Source: Nemertoderma westbladi (taxonomy: Eukaryota > Animalia > Xenacoelomorpha). From it: a stretch of DNA of 32,662 nucleotides. The notes beneath the pieces are model-generated. The model saw only the letters and a list, made by a program, of their open reading frames with translations. It made no database searches and had not been told where the DNA came from. A program made the translations under genes and the position numbers. The number at the start of each line of letters is the position of its first letter. Position 1 is the stretch's first letter. The stretch is taken from contig JAUCBJ010000219.1 in the NCBI GenBank assembly GCA_032718475.1, positions 1 through 32,662 on the forward strand, read 5' to 3'. Positions 5,926 to 31,006 of this stretch are shown piece by piece.

Positions 5926-6113
5926 TTAAAAATAAATTAAATATTATATTGATCGTTTATACAAACCGAATAAATAAAAACAGCTAGTAAATAATTACTG
6001 GCTACGCTGACTATCTAATAACAATTACTAGCGCTGTAATACTTATTAGTAGTTTAGCAATTTAGCGGCAATTTACTTTATTTTATCTTTTAGATTCAAT
6101 AATCCCCCTAACA

Positions 6114-6969
6114 ATGGCGCCGATCCGGGAACTAAAAATGATCCCGGGTACCGAGGAGGTTGTCTTTGTGTCTCTCAACCTCCCCTGTATCATAAACTCA
6201 ACAACTCTCTACGAAAAGGAAGATCTACCGGGATCCGGAGGTTCTAACGGTTACGGGACAGTCGCGGTTTCTACGGACGGGAACCGCGTTGCCTCGGGAA
6301 CCTGGGCGGGGGGGTCGGTGACTGTCTGGGAGCGGGAAGCGACCGGTTGGAGGGTCGTAGTGGAGGTACCGTGGAGGGAGTTCGTGGTTGGTGGGGGGGA
6401 GGGTAGAGCGAGGTTGGGAATAGATATAAATCCCTCCAACCGGGACGTAATTGCAACTTGTGGGGACGACGGGAGGATTTCTATTATATCAATAGCTGGG
6501 GGGAAATATAAGGTTACGAACTGGGTGGGGCATTCTGGGGTGGTTAACTGTATTCGGTTCGACTCGAACGGGTCCCGGTTGGCCAGCTGTTCGGATGATG
6601 GAACAGTAACAGTTTGGGTGACCGGAACCCGGGAGATGTTGTTGTTGTACCAATACCGGGGGCACAGTGGGGGGGTCTGGAGTCTGGGTTGGGGTCCGGA
6701 TGGGGAGTCAGTGGTGTCGGTAGATGAGGTAGGAGGGATCCATCGCTTTGTTGTTGGTACAGGGGAGACCTTGTGGAGACAGGAAGCAACTCCTGAGGTC
6801 AATAGGATCGTATTGAGTCCGAAAGGATCCAGAATCGCTGCTGTTGGGGTGAACGGGTTGATTTATATTCTAAATTCTGTAACTGGGGAGATTATCAACC
6901 GGATTGAAGGAACAGGGAGCGGCATCGAAGCGGTGGATTTCTGTAAAGATGACCGGCATATTATTACAG
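6114..6969 (+). CDS. First coding exon of a WD40-Roc-COR-CARD (ROCO) gene: WD40 beta-propeller
   Basis: WD40 repeats include GHSGVVNCIRFDSNGSRLASCSDDGTVTVW, GHSGGVWSLGWGPDGESVVS, VNRIVLSPKGSRIAAVG and IEAVDFCKDDRHIITG. Acceptor TTTTATCTTTTAG ends at 6093. Donor CAG|GTAATT is at 6970, phase 1. Confidence 0.9.
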
Positions 6970-7304
6970 GTAATTAATTAATAGACCTCTTTTATTAAAA
7001 CACGTTAATTAATTAATTAGGCCTAGGGTCTAATTCAGTACCGTACCACTACGTACCATAGTAAGTAATAATCATTATAACACTTAAATGAATTAATTAC
7101 ATTAATTATTATTATTTAATTCAATTTTATTGAATTAATAATTTACTTACCGATATGATGCGGATTAACTGAACATTACCTTCACTGCCTCCTGCCAATA
7201 TTGGGTACCATGGGAACGAAATATAAATTAGTCTAATAGGGGTATCAGAACATAGACCATTACAACATAGTCCCTGTCCAGGTTGGAATTTATGTAGAGT
7301 TTGC

Positions 7305-8135
7305 TCAACATGTGTGGCGCGGATTAAGGATCCTGGCGCGTAGTGACAGGGGCGTGTGGCGCGCATTGAGGATCCTGGCGGTCCTGGCGCGAATATGGAT
7401 GTAGGGTTAGGGTAGGATGTAAGCGTAGCAGCGGTGCACTGGCAACACATCCCACTATACAGCTCTATTTGAAATTATTCCATAGGTTTAAAAAGATTGA
7501 AAAATTTCCGCTCGCTTTGCTCCTCGCGTTTATACTGTAAGCCTACTCTTAGCATAGCACTGTCTGCAGACTGCAGGTCTGGCTGTGGACAAACGGACAG
7601 ATTGAGCATGACCATTCTGCCATTAAAAACATGATTTGTTTCAAAAGTGTTTCAATTGTCAGTTTCTTGAAACCAATAAAACCATGATTCAGCAGAATTT
7701 CCGTGCTCGCTACGCTCGCAATTTAATAACATCTGTATTTGAAAACAGTCGGTTTGTCTACTCTAAATGGTGAAATGTTAAAATTTTCGCGTTCGCTACG
7801 CTCGCAACACGCAATTTCATCACATCTGCTTTTAAAAACAGTCAGTTGACGTTGACCTACTATTTACAACTACTACTACAGTACGGTACTGTCAGACTGT
7901 ATTTATGTTAACATTATTAGAAAATTTCCTTGCTCGCTACGCTCGCATTTTATTGTTAAAATACTGTAGGGCTACAGCATTATAAACTGATAAATTATTG
8001 CAATTCAGCAATTACTGCAAAATTTCATAGTCAACTGTTGGCTTGGCGCGCATTGGATATCATGGCTGGCGCGATTTTCGTTTAACCAGAACGCGTGTGG
8101 CGCGCTTTTTGTCAGTATTCCATATAGGGTCCCTG
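7305..8135. repeat. Probable non-autonomous interspersed repeat with internal AAATTT.C..GCTCGCTACGCTCGCA motifs
   Basis: Motif copies occur near 7501, 7696, 7780 and 7921. GTGTGGCGCG occurs at both ends (about 7312, 7354 and 8095). No clean TSD was found. Confidence 0.45.
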
Positions 8136-8299
8136 TAGTCGGATAGATTTAGGTGCGGTTTGGTTCCGGTAAATGTAACATTAAAATAAACTAATAAACC
8201 AGCAATTAGCTTAATAATAGTATGTATTCAGTTATCTGTTAGGTTGTTTGTTATTGGTTTGTATCAATGGCGTTTTAACCAACTGGTAGTTCTACTTAA

Positions 8300-9852
8300 C
8301 CCTATTAAACCCGGGGGGGGGGTCAATATGACCCCTCCCGTGGTTTTTTTATTATAAATCTGAAACAAACGCAGTTGGGAATCTGAAATTTTATGACTTT
8401 TCCTAAAAATCTATTGTCTTCCTAGTAGTGAAAACCGTTTTCAAAAATATTGGGTACTTTTCGAGTTATAGCACCATTTTTTAACCCTACTTTTGGCACT
8501 TTTTTTGAGACGTTTTTTGAAAATTACATTTCATTAAATATGAATTGTAACATCTCTATTTATTATTTACACCGGTTTTTTGGTGTTAGAAATTTGATGG
8601 AATTCATATAAATTGATTTAGAAATTTCAAACTTGTTTTTTTCGGTGGGTGCCAAATTTTGGTGCCAGCACCAAATTTTGAAATAAGTCAATTTTGTAAA
8701 TTGATCGTTTGAAACTTGTTTTTTACGCAATTGGGTTTTTTTGGGTTTCTAGATTCGATGAAATATATACGAGTTGCACCAAGCGTATCAAACTTGTATT
8801 TTTCGGTGCTGTGTGCAAATTTTGGTGCAAGCACGAAATTTTGAAAATCCATTCAATAGATAAAATTGCTTGTGACAACTTATTTCTTGAGTTTTAGAGG
8901 TTTATGGCTGTTCTGAATTCAATGGAAAATATAATTATCGAACTAGACATCTCAAACTTGTATTTTTCGGATGTGGGTGCAAAATGTGGTGCTAGCACCA
9001 AATTTTGAAAACCATCAAATATATCAATTGATTGTGTCACCTTGTTTCTTGCGTTATATGGGTTTGTGATGGTTCTGAATTCAATGGAATCAGTAAAAAT
9101 TTCATAAGTGTTCTCAAAATGGTATTTTTCGCCGGTGGGTGAAAATTGTTGTGCCAGCACCAAATTTTGGAAAATATGCAAATTGATAAGTAGATAGTAT
9201 CACCTTGTTTCTTGCGTTATACGGGTTTATGAGGGTCCTGAATCCGATGGAATCAATAAAAACAGCACTGGACATCGCAAACTTGTACTTTTTGGTGATG
9301 GGTACGAAATTTGGTGCTAGCACCAAAATTTGCCAAAAAACGCCGAAAAATACAAGTAGCAATGATCTGGCATATTAGAAATGTATTCCATTAGAATCAG
9401 CGCCCTCGAAAACCTGAAAATGTGAATTTATAGCATCGTATAAGTGAATTAAAAATTTTGTGTTCTAACTGAAAAGTGCTGGTTACTTGTTTTTTTCATT
9501 TTTTTCCTATGCAGAGAGGACTAAACAGCCATTTATAGTAATCATATCATTTTTTAATATTTTCCAATGTATTTTGCACCCCAGAAAACCTGTATTGAAA
9601 AATAATTAGCCGAAAATGTAACTTTCAAATTTGGTGAAAATTGTGCACTACTTGTAATTTTGGTGCTGCAATATAACCACCCCAGTACATTTTTTTCGAA
9701 ATTTTTTTTTTCGGTCGGATCCAGACAAGTGATACCTACGTACAAACAAAAAATCAGACGTTTTCGTAATTATTTGTAGATTTTAGAGGGGGGGGTCAAT
9801 ATGACCCCCTCCCGGTATTTGTACAACATTTTATAGCCCGGTACTAATAGGG
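8300..9852. mobile_element. Non-autonomous piggyBac-like DNA transposon (MITE-like, 1553 bp)
   Basis: TTAA target duplication at 8296-8299 and 9853-9856. Terminal inverted repeats are CCCTATTAAACCCGGG and CCCGGTACTAATAGGG (13/16 match). Subterminal palindromes GGGGTCAATATGACCCC lie near both ends. There is no transposase ORF. Confidence 0.85.
8625..9335. repeat. About 162-bp tandem repeat, about 5 copies, inside the piggyBac-like element
   Basis: CAAACTTGTATTTTTCGG...AAATTTTGGTGCTAGCACCAAATTTT recurs near 8628, 8789, 8953, 9115 and 9278. Confidence 0.8.
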
Positions 9853-10139
9853 TTAAATACAAACTATAATGGTGCCAATAGGCCTACCGGTACTGCAATG
9901 CAGTAAAGTAACTGTACAGAGAATACAACCGGTACTGTATTATAAAAACTTTCATTATTAGGTCTGCCATACAGTCTCATTACTTAGGCATACAACAAAG
10001 GCTTATTATAATATATACCACCTTGCTCGCCATAGATAGTTAGTTAGGTAGCGCCTGGATAGCTATATATTTCAAATTATTTCTAATTATGTCACAAATT
10101 AAATATCACAAATTCAATATCCAGTATGTTACAGGAAAA

Positions 10140-10830
10140 CGTAGAAAATCAAAATAATATCAAAATAATATTAATCAAAATCAAATCAAAATCATTTAAA
10201 CAATTCTAGTAATTCGTAAATATATGCACAGAGGGTATGAGAGTCACCTTTAAAAAGAGTATTCAAGCGCCCCGCAAAATCGAGAGTCTGGTATTTTAAA
10301 CATAAATCTTTTGAGAGTGGGCACACACATAAAACGTGCAACTCATCTTGTACAGAGGTGTTGTCACAGATACAAGTTCTGTCCAATCGTGGTATCCTGG
10401 ACCACCGGCCGGTTTCTATACGCAGTCTATGACTCATTAATCTGACTCGGGTAAAAGCAGCGCGGTGATATTCCGGAATATACGGTTTGGCAGATTTGTA
10501 TATCGGGTGTACAGACAAGTCGCTATTTAAAACAGAACGGTATGTAAAAAACTTTGTAGCGGATTCTGGTTTGTTTATAACACGGGATTTTATTATACTG
10601 GTAGTGAATAAATTGAACGAGGCTTTATACAACAAATTCTAACCCGGGCTATTTGCCGATTTGCAAAGTTGGAATGCCTGATTAATCGGTGTATCGGGAT
10701 CGCTATGAAGTATTTTCATGTAAAATTGCTTCCTACATTTAATTATACGTTCTAGAATGGTTGGTAGCTCTAATTCGATCAGACAGATGTCGGTAGGAGT
10801 TTGATATCTAACACCTGCTAATGTTTGTAA
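10140..10830 (-). mobile_element. 5'-truncated non-LTR retrotransposon 3' end (RTEX/L2-type ORF2 C-terminus), degenerate
   Basis: GVRYQTPTDICLIE...FTRVRLMSHRLRIETGRWSRIPRLDRTCICDNTSVQDELHVLCVCP gives a CCHC-like C-terminal motif. There is an in-frame stop at 10639-10641 and an (ATTTTG)n-like tail near 10140-10192. Confidence 0.8.
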
Positions 10831-11894
10831 AATGTCCACTTTTTGGAGGACGTTTTTGTTTTTAGTTGTAGTCCAATACAAAATGCCGGCTAATATTTTT
10901 TATTGTTTGTTCCAAATTCATTAACATACTAATCATAAATACGCTGCCTAAAACTGGTCTACTTGGGGTAAAAAGCTTCCAGTTTCAGGCATAATTAATA
11001 CACCTACGACTGCACCGGTACCAGATTTGCCTACATAATGTAGTACGCATATAGATTACATCAGTATGTATTATAATAAATGTTTACTAGTTGTGTGTGA
11101 CAGGTGTAATGTGTCTTATCGGTCTGGTCACCTAATGTTTTCTATTATTATTTGATCATAAATTCAAATTGTATTGGGTGGGGGGTAGGACCGGTTTTTT
11201 TTCAAATTGTTTTTAAACTGCATTAGTTTATTTTAAGCAATACACCCATATTTGTCACCCATATAAAAACATTACAATCTTCTGGTTTACGAATATGGCG
11301 ACGAAATGCTCGAGAAACTACTCAAACGATCACAATTTGAATAAAAGTGGATGGGAGTAGTGTGGATCAAATGTGTCTACGTCAGAATACTTCAATTTTA
11401 ACCGCCAAAGAAACGTATTGTGTTGGATCAAATGGGTGGATTGAAGTACAGACAATTTTTATTCGAACCATCCCAGCATATATAACATCTCCACCTTTTG
11501 GAAACAAACTATTTCATGCAAAAAATTAAAAAAAAAAACTAAAAAATGGGTCAATAGATGTAAAGTTTTCAATGATTACTGGCTACGGCTTGTTTAAACA
11601 TTGAATTAGCAGTAAATATCGCACATTATCCTGCCCAGCATCAGTGCAGTAAAGGTAGGTCTACTACACCAATGCCAGGGATACTCCATTCAATATATTA
11701 ATTATCTACGGTAGTTCTGTAGTTAATTAGTAATGCTGTAAGCGGTATACGGAAACGTAGGATAATATGATAGAGCTAGACCCAGCTTCTACAACCAATA
11801 TCACGGCCTTCCCCCATCTGGGCACCTTTCATTCACCTACAAATTGTAATATTACCAGCTTCCCTGCAAGATACCACTGTCCATGTCCAATAAG

Positions 11895-12079
11895 GGAGCT
11901 CCCTATTCAAATACATCCCTTCCTTCTCATTGGAGCTTCCTATGCAAATACATCCCTTCCTTCTCATTGGAGCTTCCTATTCAAATACATCCCTTCCTTC
12001 TCATTGGAGCTTCCTATGCAAATACATCCCTTCCTTCTCATTGGAGCTTCCTATGCAAACACATCCATTCCTTCTCATT
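11895..12079. repeat. 37-bp minisatellite, 5 copies
   Basis: GGAGCTTCCTATGCAAATACATCCCTTCCTTCTCATT starts at 11895, 11932, 11969, 12006 and 12043. Confidence 0.95.
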
Positions 12080-12204
12080 GTATTAACCTTTACAGTTAAT
12101 AACAAGGAATATTTCTGTATCCAATAACTATATGAGATAACAGTGACAGTAAACGTTTATTGATCAGTTTGTAACAAGTCAATATCAATATTAAATCGCA
12201 TCAG

Positions 12205-13480
12205 GGATCCCATTGAGAGACTGCTCCGTGGAAATCAGAATGGGTTCCGTAAAGGTCGTGGGACCATGGAGCCCATTTTGGCACTTAGAAGGAAAATTGA
12301 AGAGTTATCACAAAAGAAAGACAGGCATCTGGCTGTTATCTTTGTTGACTTCTTCAAGGCCTTTGATTCAGTCTCTCGCTCACGTACAGTATGTTCAGCA
12401 TACTTTCATTATATGGGATTCCTGATGAAATTATTGCAGCAATCAGATCAGTATACGATGGTTCGACAACATTTGTGACACAGAACCATTTGAAGTGTTA
12501 TGGGGCGTCCTCCAAGGAGACACACTTGCACCATTCTTGTTCATTATTGTGGTTGACTATGTTCTACGCATGTCCTTAGATCATTATAATGATGATGGGG
12601 TGATGATAACTCCACCTACTGGCTCCAGAAGTTGAGGAAATCCTGCCAAGTACCTAACTGATCTAGACTTTGCTGATGACTTAGGAGTACTCTCAGAATC
12701 ACCAGAGGGAGCCCAACGGCTCTTCAGCTCATTAGAACATGCTGCTTCTAGTGTTGGTCTTTTTATTAACTCCAGAAAGACCAAAATTTTGACAGTTAAC
12801 TTTGAAAGTGATAATTGAAGTCAGTCTCTGATCGGATGAGCATAAGCTCAAAAGATGGTATGCTTGAGCATGTGGATGACTTCTGTTACCTGGGATCATG
12901 GATCCGGAAGTCAGATGAGGACCTTCGAATACGTAAGGGAAAGGCATGGGCAGCCTTGAATAGGCTTTCCAGGATTTGGAAGTCGCCGAATATTAATTGC
13001 AAACTTAAGGTCCGGTTATTTAGAGCAGCAGTAGTTCCAGTACTCCTATATGGGAGTCCATGCTGGGCTCTAACTGCTGAGGACACCAAATCTCTGGACG
13101 GCACATTCACAAGAATGCTACGCCGGGTTCATTGTGTCAAGTTCAATGCACACATCTCCAACCAGACACTATATAACATTGTAGGTGTCTCATTGGTTCC
13201 CCCAAGCTTGACACTAGAACAAAATCGCCTCCGCTTTGCAGGACATTGCTTTCGTCGTGAGGACCAGCCAGTGCATAATCTTGTACTTTGGCAGCCTCAT
13301 GGAGTGAATAAGCATGATGGACAGCCCATGACTTTCTTGAGATGCATCTTAAAGGACACTGGCCTTGAAGATGCGGATGATCTAGCAAATGTCGTGGGTG
13401 ATAAGGGAGTTGTGGCGGTGCAATTTTGTTGATAAGCCGGCACAGCATTCTTAAAAATGCAGCTGCAATGCAGCATGCCG
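12205..13480 (+). mobile_element. RTE-clade LINE reverse transcriptase fragment (frameshifted)
   Basis: RT motifs across frames: NQNGFRKGRGT, VIFVDFFKAFDSV, GVLQGDTLAPFLF, DLDFADD, VDDFCYLGSWI, LLYGSPCW, RLRFAGHCFR. Confidence 0.92.
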
Positions 13481-15100
13481 ATCCTAGTAGTAGTAATATC
13501 AATTATGTTTTACATGTGTTTAACGTAATCTTTGCACAGGAAAGACAGCTTCTAAATAGGTGATAATTAAGGGTCAACTTCACATCAACCTCAGATACCA
13601 GGTTTAAAAGGGCCAGTTTTGGATGTTTTAAACAGTCAGTAACAACAGGCCTAGTAGATGGCAGCCTCGGCAGCTAATTTTGGCTCTGCTTCTTGGTATC
13701 GGACCTAAACTACACCATTACTCTGATACCATCAGGGGAGGGGACCTAGTGGTGGATGTGTAGGTAAGGCTCCCGCTGAGAACTGAGCTTTGGCCAACCA
13801 GCCCTGGAGCGCTAGCGCACCCTGCCCGCTCCGCTGGCTATTCAGTCCGTCCCAGGATCGATTGTTTAGGTATGAGGACAAAGTAGCAGCATCTTCCTGG
13901 GTTTTGTCTCAGGTCAGATTATGGTAGAGCTTGCACTCTTTGCCCGTAAACTTAGTGGAGCGACCAGCGACCTCGGTTAATCCTCTAAGTCATAGGACAA
14001 ATTAGCAGCTAACCATCTGCATCCAATCGGTCCCACCCCCATTTGGACACAGAAGGTAACCTAGTGTTTTGCACTATTGCCAAGTTTCCAATAGCGTGAA
14101 GCCGCACCAAGTTTATTACGATTTTTATCAGTCTTTTCCGACTTTTTTCCACATTTAGTCTTTATGACTAACTATGACCTTTATCAGACGCTTTTTGTAT
14201 TACATTCTTCACAGTATTTTAGCATCAATAAACGACTAAAATATTGTATTTTATGTACTATTTTTCGGTTATAATTTTTTTAGATTGTATTATTTTTCGA
14301 GGCTATACTTTGGATCCTAATGGACGCAAAGCACCCCTCACCCTGTATTTTCTTTTTCCCTCTTCTCAGAGATTTTTCAATGGTGTTACATTACACTATT
14401 TTTATACCAGAAGCAAGCAATATAGCATCTGGAGAGAACAGAAATCGCTGAGTTTTAGTGCTATCTGGAAAGGGTTGTGGATGTCCGTAAATAACAAGTC
14501 ATTGAAGGACCGTGTATTACTGCGAGCTATTTTCAAGTCAGTCTTGCTACCGAGAAACCAATTCAACTTTTATGATTACACTTTATATTTGCCAATTACC
14601 ATTATTTACATTTCATTATTTACATTCAAATTTTAAGCCCACCACCTGTTAAAAAAAGTTTGTTTCACAATCAAGTTTCAAATCGAGTCAACTTAAACTT
14701 TATAAAAAAACAATTTTAATTGGTAGTTCTTCTGGTCCCATATATTTGACCGAGTCTACCTGCGTTCGAATTTATATGTGTGCAATCCAATCTGATCAAG
14801 GATTGTTTTTATAGCTTTGGAGACTGTTGGTACAAATCTTATAAAACTTTAAGTATCATCTGTAAGATTGGGTGCTTCTTTTAGTTCTGGGTGTTGAGGT
14901 TTTTATCAACCATATCTAGCGGGTTGTTGTTTATATTAACATAACAGTATATCAGTGTCTCCGGCTCAGAAATAGTTCAAGCAACTTATCTTTATAATTT
15001 TAACCATCCTATTGTCCCGTTTATCATTGCTATAATACGTAATATTGGATGTCAACTCAGTGGAAAGACAGCTTAACAATAATTATTATACTTTATACAG

Positions 15101-18100
15101 GAGATGATGGCGGCACAATTACAGTAATTGATACGTTCCGTGAAGGTCAAACTGAAACAAAGAAAAGTATCAAACAGGTGGAAAGTATATTGGAGAAAGC
15201 TGAAGAATTAAAGGAAATTGTTGAGTATATCGGATGGGTTGGTCCCATAAATAAACCACTCCAGGGTAAGATAACTGATATAATTATATCTACTGTTGAT
15301 GTTCTTTCAGATAAGGAAAAACAACTTTACTTTAGACTGGATGCAGATATTTCTGAGTTAACAACACAGAATCTGGTTAGTATTTGGGGTTTAGATGAAG
15401 TTTCAACAATAGAAATCGTTAAAAAATTCAGGGACTTGGGACTTCTGTCTACAACTGAATTAAATTCACTGAAAGTTCCAAAACTTTTAATTAATTATAT
15501 AAAAGAACAAAAACTGCCAATAGAGATACTGGCGAGAGGCCCAGAAGCATTGGCTGCTTATAAAGCAGCTCTTTCTAAAGGGACTACATGGATACTGAAA
15601 ACCCGGTTAATGTTAGTGGGACAAGAGAGGGCTGGTAAAACTAGTTTGAAGAAGTCCCTTATTGGTCAACCGTTTGATATTAATGAACAAATAACAGATG
15701 GTATTGACTCATCTGCTAACTGTATTATAAATACCGAACAAAACACAGATTGGACCAACTTACGAGATAAAGATAAAGAAAACTTGGAGAAAGATGTCAA
15801 TGACTTTGTTACTAAACAAATAGCAAAAACTGTTCTAGAAAGTAAACAAGTTGCAGATAATAAAAGTGTGACTCCCATAGTTTCAACCTCTTCATCAGCA
15901 GCTAATGCTAAACCTACAGAGATTCCTATTACAGTTGCAAGTGGAAGTGGTAATAAAGTTCCAACCGTTAGTTTGTGGAGGAGGTTAGTTTCCAAATTTA
16001 CACGCAATAAAGAACAAATCAGTATTGAAGGTGAAGTCAGGGTCACAGAGGGAAGCATTAGTAGACATAAAGGAGGTACAGGATATATTCAATCCAAACA
16101 TGATTCTTCTGAAACACAAATCCTCAGCAAACATATCTAAAGGAGTAGAAGATATACTCACATCTGGTAAACCCCAAGATATTCTGGCTAAATTTAATGA
16201 GGAAGACAGTCGCTTTTCTCTACAGATAGTCGATTTTGGTGGCCAATGTATTTATTACACAACCCATCAGATATTTTTGAGTAGACGAGCTATTTATATA
16301 ATTGTATTTAATCTCTTGGAAAATCTTGAAAAAACTGCTGATATTATTTTCAGATCTGATGAAAACAATATTAATGAGTTTGTTTTCGGTGAGATTAAGA
16401 ATATTGAGTTTATTGAATTTTGGTTAAAAAATATTTATTCATTTGGTACAAAACTAGAAGTAAATTCTTGTCCACCTGTTTTTGTAGTTGGAACTCATAA
16501 AGGCAGCTTACATGCTGATCCTGATACTCAATCTGTAATAGCAAGTAAAATATTTGAAAAGATTAAGACCCATTTGGGTAAATCTTCATATACAGATAAT
16601 CTAATTAAAGATTACATTGCTATAGAGAATAATAGAGAAATTATATATGGTGGAGAGAAAGGACTTGAAAATTTACAGGCAAATATTGTCAACGAAATGG
16701 CAAATTTTAAGGAGGAAATACCTTTGCAATATCTAAAATTTGACCAACTTGTGTCTCAATTAATCACGGATGGTAAAGTTTATATTGACATTGACTTGCT
16801 AGAGATTAAATTAAAGGATATTGATGTAGAAATGGATAACATTGGTTTGAAAACCATGTTAGAATTTTACCACGATTTGGGTACAATAATTTACTTTGAT
16901 GATGAATCTCTAAGGGATACTGTTATACTGAGCCCAGAATGGTTGAGTGGAATGTTTACCAAAATAATAACTGTAAAAGATAAAATAAAGAAACAACATT
17001 TTACTTTCTGGAAGGACCTGGATAACAATGGTATATTACATGAAGAACTCCTTGATTATCTGTGGGAAGGCGTTCTTGATAAAAAACAATTTATGTTGAA
17101 TATTCTAGAACGTTTTGATTTATTATGTGAACGAGTTTTACCAAGAACCGAAAGAACATTGCAAGATGATGTAAAGTTGGCTTATTATGTACCTTGCCGC
17201 CTTAAATCTGTTAGATATACTCCATTCACACCAAGACAATGTAAAGTTGAATTTTATATTACATTCAAGAGTTTCTTACCGCAAGGATTGTACTACCGTT
17301 TAATTAAGAGAACTATTGATTTGTCATACATTGTAGGTAATAGAGTAATTCAACCTAAACTTTACCACAGAGTTGCTCAAATATTTTTAGATTTTAATCA
17401 TCAGGTAATTTTGGAAAGATCTTCTATTTCATTAAATTGGATTAAAGTTCATGTAGTTAGATCTGAGGTGTTGAGTTCGGGCGATGAACAAACTGAAAGT
17501 AAACTTGCACCAGATCCGGATATTGTTAATAAAGTAAATCATTTCATTAATACATCATTGAAGGAAATTATCACCCAAATGAGATTTAAAAATATTTCAT
17601 TTGATTTCGAAATAAAATGTGAATGTAATGCTAAATGCGATCAACACAGATTACTTGACTGCAATGAAGAAGGGTGTTTTCACTTTGTTAAACTGGCTGA
17701 TATTTTATCAAATAATTTTGTTCAATGTAAATTTAATAACTCTGTTAGAAGTCGATTTATTAGTGGAAAATTCCCTGTTGTTGGGAGATTTAGCTCACAT
17801 TGGTTAAACATTACAACTAACCGAGATGACCTTATTGATAGACTGGAAATCTCAGAGTTACTTGTATACTTAGCAAGTAAGGGGGCTATATCAAAGGAAG
17901 TTTTAGCTGTTATTGAATCTAAGTCGAATTTGTTGAGTAAGAATAAGATTTTGTTGGAGTCAATAAAATGGGGATCAGAAAATAATTACAAAGTATTTAT
18001 TGAAGCATTATATGTAACCAATCAACCGCTTTTGGTTGAAATTTTGCATGAAAAAATCAAAATGGAAGACCAAATGTTCCCTGATATTCTAACAAAGTAT

Positions 18101-18478
18101 AAATATATGTTAATGAAAAATTTAGAACAAACTAAATTTGTTGCACAGCTTCTTGTTAGCCGAAACGTTATAAGTAAATCTATCATAGAAATAATCGAAT
18201 GTAAAGAATCAATAGATAGTAAGAATGTTGTACTTATAAACGCAGTAATGAAAAGATCTTACAAGGATTTTCTTACTTTTTGTAAATGTCTTCGTCTCAC
18301 CAACCAACATCATTTAGCTGATACTCTAGAGGAAGCAACCAAAGGTTATGATGCTGATATTGTAGACATTACCAATCAAGCTGATGAAGTTGCTGATATA
18401 GATAATACTAATCAAGGTGGAGAGGCCGCTGGGGTTATAGACGTTACCAATCAACCGGTGGAGAGGCTGCCGTTATAG
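15101..18478 (+). CDS. Main exon(s) of the ROCO gene: end of WD40, Apaf-1-like winged helix, Roc GTPase, COR, Cys-rich module, 2 CARDs; +1 frame break at about 15990-16140
   Basis: LPIEILARGPEALAAYKAAL leader; P-loop GQERAGKTS (15619-15645); TDGID switch I; DFGGQ (16232); YYTTHQIFLSRRAIYIIVFNL; VGTHKG; COR motifs LEFYHDLGTIIYF, VILSPEWL, ERFDLL, YYVPCRL. CARD-like helical domains lie near 17786-18052 and 18077-18334. ORFs 15049-16140 and 16025-18478 overlap in different frames. Confidence 0.85.
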
Positions 18479-21156
18479 ACATTGCCAATCAATGTAATGT
18501 AGCTGTTGTTATAGATGTTACCAATCAACAGGTGGAGAGTCTGCTGTTATAGACATTGCCAATCAAGGTAGAGGGGGTGCTGTTATAGACATTACCAATG
18601 AAGGTGAAGAGGCTGCTGTTATAGACGTTACCAATCAAGGTAGAGAGACTGCTGTTATAAACGTTACCAATCAACTGGTGGAGAGGCTGCTGTTATAGAC
18701 ATTGCCAATCAATGTAATGTAGCTGTTGTTATAGATGTTACCAATCAACCGGTGGAGAGACTGCTGTTATAGATAGACATTGCCAATTAATGTAATGTAG
18801 CTGTTGTTATAGATGTTACCAATCAACCGGTGGAGAGGCTGCTGGGGTTATAGACGTTACCAATCAACCGGTGGAGAGGCTGCTGTTATAAACGTTACCA
18901 ATCAAGGTAGGGGGGGTGCTGTTATAGACATTACCAATGAAGGTGGAGAGGCTGCTGTTATAGACGTTACCAATCAAGGATGAGAGGCTGCTGTTATAAA
19001 CGTTACCAATCAAGGTAGAGGGGCTGCTGTTATAGACATTACCAATCAAGGTAGAGGGGCTGCTGTTATAGACATTACCACTGAAGGTGGAGAGGCTGCT
19101 GTTATAGACATTACCAATCAAGGTAGAGGGGCTGCTGTTATAGACATTACCAATCAAGGTAGAGAGGGTGCTGTAATAGACGATACCAATCAAGGTAGAG
19201 GGGCTGCTTTTATAGACATTACCAATGAAGGTGGAGAGGCTGCTGTTATAGACATTACCAATGAAGGTTGAGAGGCTGCAGTTATATACATTACCAATCA
19301 AGGTAGAGAGGCTGCTGTAATAGACGATACCAATCAAGGTAGAGGGGCTGCTGTTATAGACATTACCAATGAAGGTGGAGAGGCTGCTGTTATAAACATT
19401 ACCAATCAAGGTAGAGAGGCTGCAGTTATATACATTACCAATGAAGGTGGAGAGGCTGCTGTTATAGGCGTTACCAATCAAGGTAGAGGGGCTGCTGTAA
19501 TAGACGATACCAACCAAGATAGAGGGGCTGCTGTTATAGACATTACCAATGAAGGTAGAGAGGCTGCTGTTATAGACGTTACCAATCAAGGTTGAGAGGC
19601 TGCTGTAATAGACGATACCAATCAAGGTAGAGGGGCTGCTGTTATAGACATTACCAATGAAGGTGGAGAGGCTGCTGTTATAAACATTACCAATCAAGGT
19701 AGAGAGGCTGCAGTTATATACATTACCAATGAAGGTGGAGAGGCTGCTGTTATAGGCGTTACCAATCAAGGTTGAAAGGCTGCTGTTATAGACGTTACCA
19801 TGAAGGTGGAGAGGCTGCTGTTATAAACATTACCAAACAAGGTAGAGAGGCTGCAGTTATAGACATTACCAATCAAGGTAGAGAGGCTGCTGTAATAGAC
19901 GATACCAATCAATGTAGAGAGGCTGCTGTTATAGACGTTACCAATCAAGCTAGAGAGTCTGCTGTTATAGACATTACCACTGAAGGTGGAGAGGCTGCTG
20001 TTATAGACATTACCAATCAAGGTAGAGAGGGTGCTGTAATAGACGATACCAATCAAGGTAGAGGGGCTGCTGTTATAGACGTTACCAATCAAGCTAGAGA
20101 GTCTGCTGTTATAGACATTACCAATCAAGGTAGAGAGGCTGCTGTAATAGACGACACCAATCAAGGTGGAGAGGCTGCTGTAATAGACGACACCAATCAA
20201 GGTGGAGAGGCTGCTGTAATAGACGATACCAATCAAGGTAGAGGGGCTGCTGTTATAGACGTTACCAATCAAGCTAGAGAGTCTGCTGTTATAGACATTA
20301 CCAATCAAGGTTGAGAGGTTGCTGTTATAGACATTACCAATCAAGGTAGAGAGGCTGCTGTAATAGACGATACCAATCAATGTAGAGAGGCTGCTGTTAT
20401 AGACGTTACCAATCAAGCTAGAGAGTCTGCTGTTATAGACATTACCACTGAAGGTGGAGAGGCTGCTGTTATAGACATTACCAATCAAGGTAGAGAGGGT
20501 GCTGTAATAGACGATACCAATCAAGGTAGAGGGGCTGCTGTTATAGACGTTACCAATCAAGCTAGAGAGTCTGCTGTTATAGACATTACCAATCAAGGTT
20601 GAGAGGTTGCTGTTATAGACATTACCAATCAAGGTAGAGAGGCTGCTGTAATAGACGATACCAATCAATGTAGAGAGGCTGCTGTTATAGACGTTACCAA
20701 TCAAGCTAGAGAGTCTGCTGTTATAGACATTACCACTGAAGGTGGAGAGGCTGCTGTTATAGACATTACCAATCAAGGTAGAGAGGGTGCTGTAATAGAC
20801 GATACCAATCAAGGTGGCTGCTGTTATAGACGTTACCAATCAAGGTAGAGATGCTGCTGTAATAGACGTTACCAATCAAGCTAGAGAGTCTGCTGTTATA
20901 GACATTACCAATCAAGGTAGAGAGGCTGCTGTAATAGACGACACCAATCAAGGTGGAGAGGCTGCTGTTATAGACATTACCAATCAAGGTAGAGAGTCTG
21001 CTGTTATAGACATTACCACTGAAGGTGGAGAGGCTGCTGTTATAGACATTACCAATCAAGGTAGAGAGGGTGCTGTAATAGACGATACCAATCAAGGTGG
21101 CTGCTGTTATAGACGTTACCAATCAAGGTAGAGAGGCTGCTGTTATTGACATTACC
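18338..21156 (+). repeat. 36-bp coding-derived minisatellite (about 78 units; peptide QGREAAVIDITN)
   Basis: The unit is CAAGGTAGAGAGGCTGCTGTTATAGACATTACCAAT. It begins in frame within the ROCO ORF and contains +2 insertions, a recurrent 5-bp deletion and TGA variants. Confidence 0.95.
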
Positions 21157-21969
21157 TGTGTGTTATCTTAATAATTCATTGCAGGAATTCCTTAAACAAA
21201 TTCGAATAAAAAACATTTCGTTTAGTTTTCATTTAAAATGTCAATGTAATTCAAAATGCGAACAGCACAATGAAATTAACTGTAGAGAAGAAATTTGTTT
21301 CCATTTTATTAAAATCGATGAAAATATTTCAGATAATAAAGTCAAATGTAAGTTTCATAAACATATGGAAAGCAACTTAATAAGAGAAAAATATACAGGT
21401 GATTTAAGTTCACATTGGAAGAAAATAACGTCTAAGGAGAATGAACTTCTAGATAAACTAGAAATATTAGAACTTATAATTTTCTTAGAAGCTAAGCGAA
21501 CTTTGTCTCGGGATGTTTTATCTATAATTAACTCGAAACCAAATGTATTCAGTAAAATAAAGACTTTATTGGAGGCAATAAAATGGGGTACAGAAAATAA
21601 TTACGGAATATTTATTGAAGGATTAAAGGAAACATATCAAACTCATATAGTAAATATTTTAGAGGATAAAACAACAGATGATGATAAAAAGTTTCCGTTG
21701 ATACTAACTAAATATAAGTTTGTTTTAGTTAATAGAATCGAACCAAACTTGGTAATAAAATTACTTTGTAGGAAACAAGTGTTTGGGGATTCTATAGCTG
21801 AATCAATCAATAGTAAAGAATCCACAGTGGCAAAGAATAATGAACTGGTCAACGCGATAATTAGAAGGTCATACCACGATTTTCTTACATTCTGTCAATT
21901 GACACAAATCAGGGTCAAATAGCTGATATCCTGACTACAGCTGTACATAATTTAGATGATTTAGTCTAA
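21155..21969 (+). pseudogene. Second, diverged Cys-module-CARD-CARD block (internal duplication of about 17535-18335), frameshifted near 21900
   Basis: YLNNSLQEFLKQIRIKNISFSFHLKCQCNSKCEQH aligns with FINTSLKEIITQMRFKNISFDFEIKCECNAKCDQH. Other shared motifs are SSHW, IKWG.ENNY, ILTKYK and RSY.DFLTFC. After 21900 homology continues in another frame as TNQGQIADILTTAVHNLDDLV* (TAA 21967-21969), matching TNQHHLADTLEEA. Confidence 0.8.
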
Positions 21970-22739: not shown

Positions 22740-25700
22740 CATAAACTCTATCCACCAACCCATCGGAACCATAAACTCTATCCACCAACCCATCGGAACC
22801 ATAAACTGTATCCACCAACCCATCGGAACCATAAACTCTATCCACCAACCCATCGGAACTATAAACTCTATCCACCAACCCATCGGAACCATAAACTCTA
22901 TCCACCAACCCATCGGAACCATAACTCTATCCACCAACCCATCGGAACCATAAACTCTATCCACCAACCCATCGGAACCATAAACTCTATCCACCAACCC
23001 ATCGTAACCATAAACTCTATCCACCAACCCATCGGATCCATAAACTCTATCCACCAACCCATCGTAACCATAAACTCTATCCACCAACCCATCGGAACCA
23101 TAAACTCTATCCACCAACCCATCGGAACCATAATCTGTATCCACCAACCCATCGGAACCATAAACTCTATCCACCAACCCATCGGAACCATAAACTCTAT
23201 CCACCAACCCATCGTAACCATAAACTCTATCCACCAACCCAACGGAACCATAAACTCTATTCACCAACCCATCGGAACCATAAACTCTATCCACCAACCC
23301 ATTGTAACCATAAACTCTATCCACCAACCCATCGGAACCATAAACTCTATCCACCAACCCATCGGAACCATAAACTCTATCCACCAACCCATCGGAACCA
23401 TAAACTCTATCCACCAACCCATCGGATCCATAAACTCTATCCACCAACCCATCGTAACCATAAACTCTATCCACCAACCCAACGGAACCATAAACTCTAT
23501 TCACCAACCCATCGGAACCATAAACTCTATCCACCAACCCATTGTAACCATAAACTCTATCCACCAATCCATCGGAACCATAAACTCTATCCACCAACCC
23601 ATCGGAACCATAAACTCTATCCACCAACCCATCGGAACCATAAACTCTATCCACCAACCCATCGGATCCATAAACTCTATCCACCAACCCATCGTAACCA
23701 TAAACTCTATCCACCAACCCATCGGAACCATAAACTCTATCCACCAACCCATCGGAACCATATACTCTATCCAGCAACCCATCGTAACCATAAACTCTAT
23801 CCACCAACCCATCGGAACCATAAACTCTATCCACCAACCCATCGGAACCATAAACTCTATCCACCAACCCATCGAAACCATAAACTCTATCCACCAACCC
23901 ATCGGAACCATAAACTCTATAACTCTATCAACCAAACCATCAGAACCATAAAGTCTATTCACCAACCCATCGGAACCATAAACTCTATCCACCAACCCAT
24001 CGGAACCATAAACTCTATCCACCAACCCATCGGAACCCTAAACTCTATCCAGTAACCCATCGGAACCATAAACTCTATCAACCAACCCATCAGAACCATA
24101 AAGTCTATTCACCAACCCATCGGAACCATAAACTCTATCCAGTAACCCCTCGGAACCATAAACTCTATCCAGTAACCCATCGGAACCCTAAACTCTATCC
24201 AGTAACCCATCGGAACCATAAACTCTATCCACCTACCCATCGGAACTCTAAACTCTATCCAGTAACCCATCGGAACCATAAACTCTATCAACCAACCCAT
24301 CAGAACCATAAACTCTATCCACCAATCCATCGGAACCATAAACTCTATCCACTAACCCATCGGAACCATAAACTCTATCCACCAACCCATCGGAACCCTA
24401 AACTCTATCCAGTAACCCATCGGAACCATAAACTCTATCAACCAACCCATCAGAACCATAAAGTCTTTTCACCATCCCATCGGAACCATAAAGTCTATTC
24501 ACCAACCCACCGGAACCCTAAACTCTATCCACCAACCCATCAGAACCAACAATTATATCCACCAACCCATCAGAACCATAATCTCTAACCACCAACCCAT
24601 CGGAACCATAAACTCTATCCAGTAACCCATCGGAACCATAAACTCTATCCAGTAACCCATCGGAACCCTAAACTCTATCCAGTAACCCATCGGAACCCTA
24701 AACTCTATTCACCACCAACCCATCAGAACCATAAACTCTACCCAGTAACCCATCGAAACCCTAAACTCTATCCACCAACCCATCGGAACCCTAATTCGAT
24801 CCAGTAACCCGTCGGACTCATAAACTCTGTCCAGTAACCCACCGGAACCATAAACTCTATCCACCAACCCATCGGAACCATAAACTCTATCCACCAACCC
24901 ATCGGAACCATAACTTCTATCCACCAACCCATCGGACTCATACACTCTATCCACCAACCCATCGGAACCATAACCTCTACCCACCAACCCATCGGACTCA
25001 TAAACTCTGTCCACTAATCCATCTGAACCATAAACTCTATCCACCAACCCATCGGAACCATAAACTATATCCACCAAACCATCGGACTCATAAACTCTGT
25101 CCAGTAATCTATCGGAACCATAAACTCTATCCATCAGAACATCGGAACCATAACTTCTTTCCACCAACCAATCGGACTCATAAACTCTATTCACCAACCC
25201 ATCGGAACCATAACCTCTAACCACCAACCCATCGATCTCATAAACTCTGTCCACCAACCCATCGGAACCATAAACTCTATCCACCAACCCATCGGAACCA
25301 TAACTTCTATCCACCAACCCATCGGACTCATACACTCTATCCACCAACCCATCGGAACCATAACCTCTACCCACCAACCCATCGGACTCATAAACTCTGT
25401 CCACTAATCCATCTGAACCATAAACTCTATCCACCAACCCATCGGAACCATAAACTATATCCACCAAACCATCGGACTCATAAACTCTGTCCAGTAATCT
25501 ATCGGAACCATAAACTCTATCCATCAGAACATCGGAACCATAACTTCTTTCCACCAACCAATCGGACTCATAAACTCTATTCACCAACCCATCGGAACCA
25601 TAACCTCTAACCACCAACCCATCGATCTCATAAACTCTGTCCACCAACCCATCGGACTCATAAACTCTATCCACCAACCCATCGGAACCATATCCTCTAT

Positions 25701-25894
25701 CCACCCACCCATCGGAACCATAACCTCTATCCACACCCATCGGAACCATAACTCATATCCACCAACCCATCGGACTCATAAACTATATCCACCAACCCAT
25801 CGGAACCATAAACTCTATCCACCAACCCATCGGAACCATAAACCCTATCCACCAACCCATCGGAACCATAAACTCTGTCCACTAAACCATCGGA
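22740..25894. repeat. 30-bp minisatellite, about 105 copies
   Basis: The unit is CATAAACTCTATCCACCAACCCATCGGAAC. The left part is homogeneous and the right part more diverged, with 240-bp and 390-bp higher-order duplications. Confidence 0.97.
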
Positions 25895-30129: not shown

Positions 30130-31006
30130 CGACCCTTCTCCAGTGATCACCGCCTTATTGTGGCCAAGGTAAGACTTAGTCTGCGTGCTAGCAGAACAAC
30201 GAAATCTGCCTTGCCGCGGCATGACTGGTCCTCTCAGTTGCAACAGCCAAGTGTGAGATACAGCTTCACACTACAGCTGAGCAACAGGTATGAGGTTATT
30301 TCCTCTGAGGCGGCAGATCACTGTGAGGGCTATACTGCCTACACAGAAGCACCTAAGTTAGCAGCTGCAGAAAAAGTTGCTGTTTACCCTCGAAACAGGA
30401 AAAGGGCCCCCTGGACTGACCACAAAATTCAGAAGTTCCGATATGACCTCTATAAGGCGCCGAAAAAGTCCCGACTCAAACAGACAACAGCGGCCAAGAA
30501 TGCAGTTAAGACTGCATCTAGATCCCCAAACAGGCAGTACTCTGTTAATTTACAGGAGCTAATAAACCAACAGGTTGATGCCATCAATGATGCTGACAAC
30601 AGCAGGCAATCATCCCAGGCATGGAAATCGATCAACTTGCTTACTGGGCGGAAAAGCCAACCAACCACCAAGGTTATTACAGAATCACCAGCCGATCGCC
30701 TCAATGGTTGGAAGGCCCACTTTGAAAAGCTCCTCAATAATGACAGGGTATTGCCTGATAACTTTAAAGAAGTAAAAGTGTTTGAGTCTGTACTCCCAGA
30801 TATTCCCATTGGCGATATCTCCTTTGCAGAAGTGAAGGCTGCTGCAAAGAGAAGACAGGCATTTGGCTGTTATCTTTGTTGACTTCTTCAAGGCCTTTGA
30901 TTCAGTCTCTCGCCTATGTATCTTCAGCATACTTTCATTATATGGGATTCCTGATGAAATTATTGCAGCAACATATCAGTATACGGTGGTTCGACAACGT
31001 TTGTGT
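30130..31006 (+). mobile_element. RTE-clade LINE fragment (end of APE domain, linker, start of RT) with an internal deletion; same family as 12205-13480
   Basis: SDHRLIVAKVRLSL (APE C-terminus), LSNRYEVI, WKAHFEKLLN and EVKAAAK are followed directly by AVIFVDFFKAFDSVSR. 30852-31006 is nearly identical to about 12318-12477. Confidence 0.9.

Follow-up and report, generated by a model that had tools for sequence, protein, structure and literature searches.

It has been proposed that STAND ATPases and AP-GTPases serve as immune switches of equivalent kind (in parts of PMC8195603). Sections of the same source describe immune switches laid out as sensor repeats, AP-GTPase-COR and effector, and bacterial systems in which STAND NTPases have been displaced by AP-GTPases (PMC8195603). 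Among ROCO proteins, N-termini with WD40 repeats and CARD-bearing Trichoplax members are known (passages of PMC11378527), and in a bacterial Roco GTP binding swings the pre-Roc domain by 135 degrees about a linker and breaks the dimer (sections of PMC11052575). Little is known of what most invertebrate ROCO proteins do. Among STAND proteins, His438 of Apaf-1 binds ADP in the autoinhibited state (passages of PMC4691890 and PMC8813719). Chlorophyte APAF1_C/WD40 proteins have lost the NB-ARC but retain Apaf-1-like parts, in some cases including the winged helix (portions of PMC8891106).

The eukaryotic DNA of the window analysed here (the whole stretch of 32,662 nucleotides) is AT-rich and contains minisatellites and the remains of retroelements. 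It carries a ROCO gene whose product has parts of the same kind as Apaf-1, Dark and CED-4: a WD40 sensor, a probable winged helix and CARD. In contrast to these proteins it has no NBD, HD1 or HD2 within the window, its switch is a GTPase, and the equivalent of His438 is absent. The Apaf-1 order CARD-NBD-HD1-WHD-HD2-WD40 is also reversed, the order here being WD40-WHD-Roc-COR-CARD-CARD. The chlorophyte proteins differ from it in keeping HD2-WD40 and in having no GTPase (portions of PMC8891106). Like invertebrate ROCOs such as the Branchiostoma Neuralized-Roc-COR-Death-TIR protein XP_019640924 (33% identity over 808 columns), it combines the PEILARG linker with Roc, COR and a death-fold domain at the C-terminus; the closest Roc-COR relatives retrieved come from amphioxus and echinoderms (29-33% identity), which makes an invertebrate animal the likely source. 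It is also akin to the Trichoplax ROCOs with CARD or death domains, and it shares a variable N-terminal slot with these invertebrate proteins. In contrast to these relatives, the slot here holds WD40 and the probable winged helix, and Pfam WD40 is found in none of the 35 relatives scanned at E 1e-4. A ROCO protein with a winged helix was not found in full-text searches of the literature, although the architecture tables of PMC8195603 and reviews of ROCO diversity could hold one; sections of PMC6321704 make no mention of ROCO. The parts are familiar and only their combination is new, in a family noted for domain shuffling.

Gene structure and domain order

The gene is a spliced animal ROCO (LRRK2-family GTPase) gene with a product of about 1,410 aa, ordered as a 7-blade WD40 propeller, a linker, an 80-residue segment, Roc, COR, CARD and CARD. 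Exon 1 (6114..6969, + strand) contains the ATG and the WD40 beta-propeller (Pfam WD40, E 4.7e-24). Seven blades are counted by eye, the last of which is completed by exon 2. The intervening phase-1 GT..AG intron of 8.1 kb (6970..15100, +) lies within this last blade and contains repeats and broken reverse-transcriptase remnants; the seventh blade is continuous in frame across the exon 1/exon 2 junction. Exon 2 begins with the final strand of the WD40 propeller, followed by a linker some 45 residues long that has no match to HD1 (15101..15270, +). The segment follows (15271..15510, +; residues 343-422), stop-free on this strand and closed on the other, and its translation is the peptide of the preliminary description, VPK included. 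Next is the PIEILARG motif with a helix (15511..15603, +), a motif that precedes Roc throughout this ROCO clade; nearly all of the 150 matches listed in a representatives search begin in this region.

The Roc GTPase (15604..16650, +, end approximate) carries a long insertion and has intact motifs, G1 GQERAGKTS (P-loop from residue 459), G3 DFGGQ and G4 THK. Pfam recognizes Roc as two halves in two frames, each below the curated cut-off because a frameshift splits the domain. The shift is caused by one extra base at 16124 (+), which 4 of 4 runs, from 3 samples, lack at full depth and which is likely an assembly error; since no run has it, the gene is likely intact. With this base removed, COR lies directly 3' of Roc in one frame. 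COR-A (16769..17125, +) exceeds its Pfam cut-off (E 2e-12, 47.6 bits), the COR-B region extends to about 17780, and BLAST matches to ROCO relatives cover about 755 residues. Two tandem CARD domains (17807..18330, +, second boundary approximate; Pfam CARD, E 6.7e-13, in 2 stretches) precede the end of the exon 2 reading frame at 18478. Within the Roc insertion, all 4 runs have 31 extra letters at a joint from 15868 back to 15864 that the window lacks; another copy of different length is the likely source.

The joining of the two exons is also seen in one sequencing run. In three contigs of run X4, a loose end ahead of 15096 consists of sequence from the end of exon 1 (window 6937-6964), and X4 depth is 0-50 over unique intron bins vs 120-290 over exon bins; the 6969-15101 joint itself is absent among the 15 joints listed, a further 705 lying beyond that list. 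The depth pattern fits RNA, though the run is labelled 'DNA?'. Should X4 be DNA, there is an intronless copy; in both cases the domains adjoin one another. The gene model, the seventh-blade read-through and the X4 contigs thus uphold the earlier placement of the segment between WD40 and Roc. The segment has no flanking introns and is therefore not a shuffled exon on its own. GC3 is 0.57 in WD40 exon 1 (6114-6969) vs 0.18-0.32 in exon 2 (15101-18337), a contrast compatible with, without proving, different histories of the two exons.

In run X1 the segment occurs in two versions, with depths of 1123 and 854, which may be alleles or paralogues. One has an in-frame 6-base insertion at 15447-15455, inside the predicted wing. 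Among the differences listed within the segment, 7 of the 12 classified change a residue, most of them conservatively; a further 156 differences lie beyond the list.

The segment between propeller and Roc

The preliminary description took the segment for an Apaf-1-type winged helix. A winged helix it likely is, and probably one of STAND origin, as judged by profile, ESM Atlas and a guided structural model; descent from Apaf-1 is only suggested. Its first helix likely begins near 15253, and the predicted wing hairpin falls at about 15445-15470.

The profile comparison rests on a broad alignment that excludes the query and has 41 winged helices of NB-ARC type: 24 from bacteria, 8 from cyanobacteria and 9 of coral type. 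It was the third profile tried, and it omits 5 of the 29 listed bacterial loci (four short ORFs of ~300 aa and one misplaced motif), one locus without the motif, and all coral-type proteins but 9. The segment scores 9.6 bits (model 19-93 of 98, P 4.8e-5), a value reached by 0 of 3,000 shuffles; the reversed segment scores 2.0. Natural ROCO decoys outside the training protein all lie below it, the best of 1,487 windows at 8.8, a margin of 0.8 bits. A profile without cyanobacteria gives 10.3 bits (0 of 1,000 shuffles as high) and one without the coral rows 3.5 bits (25 of 1,000 as high), while true members left out in the same test score 8.6-30.1 bits. The likeness to STAND winged helices exceeds chance in a single comparison but not at database scale, and the evidence for a STAND-type winged helix is moderate. 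The narrow coral and cyanobacterial profiles miss the segment (0.4 bits, 329 of 2,000 shuffles as high; 3.0 bits, 99 of 2,000). A 29-sequence bacterial version has PH0952, DARK, wheat NLR and AfsR as its first PDB matches, and so does describe STAND winged helices; hhalign pairs the segment with it end to end at a probability of 1.1%.

Direct searches with the segment return little. Pfam gives no family at E up to 1, nor at 0.5 in a second scan, and no death-fold match; a phmmer search of the PDB gives no match of note. Homologues are absent from the longer and near homologous-protein searches, from the 150 listed ROCO matches at E under 0.08 (a search swamped by Roc) and from 280 metagenome candidates. 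A plasmid search has a best E of about 3, and one 27-residue bacterial match from a genome scan was taken as chance.

The ESM Atlas, which is independent of the alignments made here, recognizes the segment with high scores (3197 and 3573), with unnamed first matches at 0.96 and 0.95. Its named rows are WHD_MalT (0.91), HTH_77, DUF7779, WHD_NWD1 and one TPR row (0.79), those under 0.9 being leads only. With DUF7779 taken by us to be a STAND winged helix, all named neighbours but one belong to STAND winged-helix families. The best family matches fall 10 of 10 in one clan, as they do for a third of shuffled proteins.

Unguided AlphaFold on 189 residues including the segment yields no usable fold (pLDDT 36). 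With 22 bacterial winged helices as a guide, the model attains pLDDT 83; it is steered by the forced STAND alignment, and its fold matches are largely circular. With this steering, the top 9 VIA rows are all NB-ARC winged helices, led by Apaf-1 356-454 (Z 11.4, rmsd 2.5, 93 aligned). The winged helices of MarR, SmtB and ORC2 are close behind (Z 9.3-9.1 in VIA, tied E in Foldseek), and Foldseek gives no E below 0.001, with Apaf-1 joint best by TM-score (0.67).

DARK and Apaf-1 are the best animal matches to the segment. When it is added to 22 bacterial WHD rows, DARK rises from 16.6 to 23.1 bits, PH0952 and Zur fall, and Apaf-1 369-447 enters the list at E 0.36; in a 5-sequence version of the addition, Apaf-1 is lost and the alignment is visibly shifted. 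These changes in score hint, at somewhat less than even odds, at an origin in the Apaf-1/Dark branch in particular. The Pfam family APAF-1-like_WHD (PF21296), present in the library, does not match the segment, and no Apaf-1-type profile could be built, as PF21296 exceeds its cut-off in 0 of 301 bacterial genomes. Elsewhere in the ROCO protein Pfam APAF1_C has no match, the WD40 exon matches Apaf-1 no better than other propellers, and the CARD pair has no Apaf-1 match in the PDB.

The preliminary description noted that VPK stands in place of the LHD motif. VPK does align to the (M/L)HD position in the broad profile alignment, but this replacement is not diagnostic: histidine occupies the MHD column in 30 of 41 intact STAND winged helices, HD in 0 of 41 by column count, and with 11 of 41 lacking the histidine, loss of LHD proves little.

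Origin and role of the segment

A profile spanning NB-ARC to WHD, run against 887 six-frame pieces of the window, detects no ATPase; its best match in the window is the segment itself (E 0.29). The earlier statement that no NB-ARC lies beside the segment therefore stands, with moderate strength.

The slot before the PEILARG linker is hypervariable among the 35 scanned of the 150 listed ROCO matches, with Neuralized, HEPN, DED, OTU, SH3, kinase, Macro, GT4, zinc fingers or ankyrin; a STAND ATPase occurs in 3 of the 35. Fusions of a STAND ATPase to Roc are exemplified by P0140, P0152 and P0153, of coral type, and by the NACHT-Roc-COR proteins XP_068689636 (Montipora) and XP_031567289 (Actinia). 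Among the 120 listed of 805 relatives of P0140, 3 have an ATPase and winged helix fused straight onto the Roc linker; TPR repeats are found in most of the others, and the named relatives come from stony corals. In P0140, P0152 and P0153, 25-29 residues separate the end of the winged helix from the Roc linker motif, compared with 15 in the window, and, in contrast to the window protein, the ATPase is retained. Their winged helix is of the TPR-STAND family, and a profile of that family does not detect the segment, so the coral-type fusion likely had an independent origin. Cnidarian-type proteins with Roc and a STAND ATPase of TPR-STAND type or NACHT comprise P0140, P0152, P0153, P0098 and P0137; the P0140 cluster has 27 members, and such STAND-Roc proteins hold two NTPase switches in one chain. 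None was found in the literature searched.

The segment is best explained, at a probability of roughly 0.6, as a STAND-type winged helix that remains from the fusion of a STAND ATPase with a ROCO protein, the ATPase having since been replaced, and that now likely acts as a hinge linking sensor and GTPase. The observed part of this account comprises the order of the domains, the splicing, the uninterrupted frame, the intact Roc motifs and the lack of an ATPase in the window. As for origin, a relic of such a fusion is most likely. A STAND gene would have recombined just 3' of its winged helix with a Roc-COR-CARD gene, and a WD40 exon would then have replaced NBD-HD1; once there was no ADP left to hold, the MHD histidine could have drifted freely. 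We infer this sequence, fusion followed by exchange of NBD-HD1 for the WD40 exon, as the simplest history, and most likely the junction after the winged helix has been used elsewhere too, independently. The shuffling of STAND or Apaf-1 parts onto a ROCO core, as first suggested, is plausible given the STAND-ROCO precedents, and ordinary for this ROCO clade.

As for function, the layout of sensor, AP-GTPase-COR and effector matches the immune switches of PMC8195603, and the protein is likely an immune switch of Apaf-1-like parts built around a GTPase. The winged helix occupies the position of the swinging pre-Roc domain of bacterial Roco, and a hinge role is favoured here. A ligand on the propeller would shift propeller and winged helix against the Roc linker and thereby alter the GTP and dimer cycle of Roc; the CARD pair would then become accessible to a caspase or adaptor, and the protein would work as an innate-immune or cell-death switch. 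A stronger version of this, a GTPase-driven apoptosome-like sensor in which a winged helix of Apaf-1/Dark lineage, WD40 and the CARD pair surround Roc-COR and the winged helix gates the Roc nucleotide pocket as it does ADP in Apaf-1, is quite unlikely. Under that version, animal STAND and ROCO switches could be swapped for one another at a single recurrent junction, immediately after the winged helix.

The main rival to the hinge role accepts the STAND derivation and makes the segment a passive relic or spacer that merely links propeller and Roc, a reading with an appreciable, if minority, chance. The absence of the ADP-contacting histidine and of an NBD suits it, as do a pre-Roc slot that accepts almost any domain, the failure to find segment homologues outside this organism, and the share of residue-changing differences between copies given above. 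Against it, both copies maintain the frame, the indel preserves that frame and falls within the loop of the wing, and most replacements are conservative. It is unlikely that the segment is a winged helix of other origin (generic wHTH, ORC/Cdc6, Z-alpha or DEP) or an unrelated small helical domain with a convergent STAND likeness: the failure of database-scale searches and the closeness of MarR, SmtB and ORC2 in the fold lists speak for this, but the Atlas neighbours that bear names belong to STAND WHD families, DARK gains selectively in score and Zur loses, and there is no Pfam death-fold match.

Two further readings were considered. The segment would not be an orphan if an NB-ARC came from an exon upstream, beyond the retrotransposon, or from a partner gene. 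Such an exon ahead of the exon 1 ATG is possible, given a pyrimidine tract and AG at 6092-6093 that form a good acceptor 20 bases 5' of the ATG, in frame and stop-free. Yet the propeller looks complete from its Met by eye, no NB-ARC is found in the window, and an upstream NBD would be parted from the winged helix by the whole propeller, an arrangement not known from any STAND protein; this reading is very unlikely. Duplication of a COR-A subdomain, suggested by a DLG with a following proline common to both (by eye only), is extremely improbable and was rejected, as profiles of the COR-A halves (21 and 20 sequences) score 0.5 and -0.7 bits on the segment, 704 and 1,041 of 3,000 shuffles score as well, and DNA similarity is absent.

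As a natural hybrid in which a Roc-COR-CARD core retains a STAND winged helix, the window protein, together with the coral-type proteins that still bear the ATPase at the same junction, would offer a direct test of switch equivalence, and also a compact model for the control of LRRK2-family GTPases by a pre-Roc domain. If the segment is only a relic, it adds one more case of immune-domain shuffling.

Repeats and retroelements around the gene

The ROCO reading frame runs into a 36-bp minisatellite of 77 copies (18363..21156, +), with 42-75 stops per frame. A diverged second COR end and CARD pair follows (21113..21922, +; 48% identity over 248 aa), and this module beyond the minisatellite is in the same frame class as the ROCO frame. 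Upstream of the gene, a 714-aa open frame with DUF1759 (3-2144, - strand) runs off the window and presumably encodes the Gag-like protein of a Bel/Pao-type retrotransposon. The long open frames in a 30-bp minisatellite of 105 copies (22740-25894) and in a 163-bp high-copy repeat (8619-9332) are by-products of the repeats. Broken, LINE-like reverse-transcriptase remnants lie at 12164-13432 (+), 30160-31005 (+) and 10192-10638 (-), and the piece at 12.1-13.5 kb is present at very high copy in the runs.
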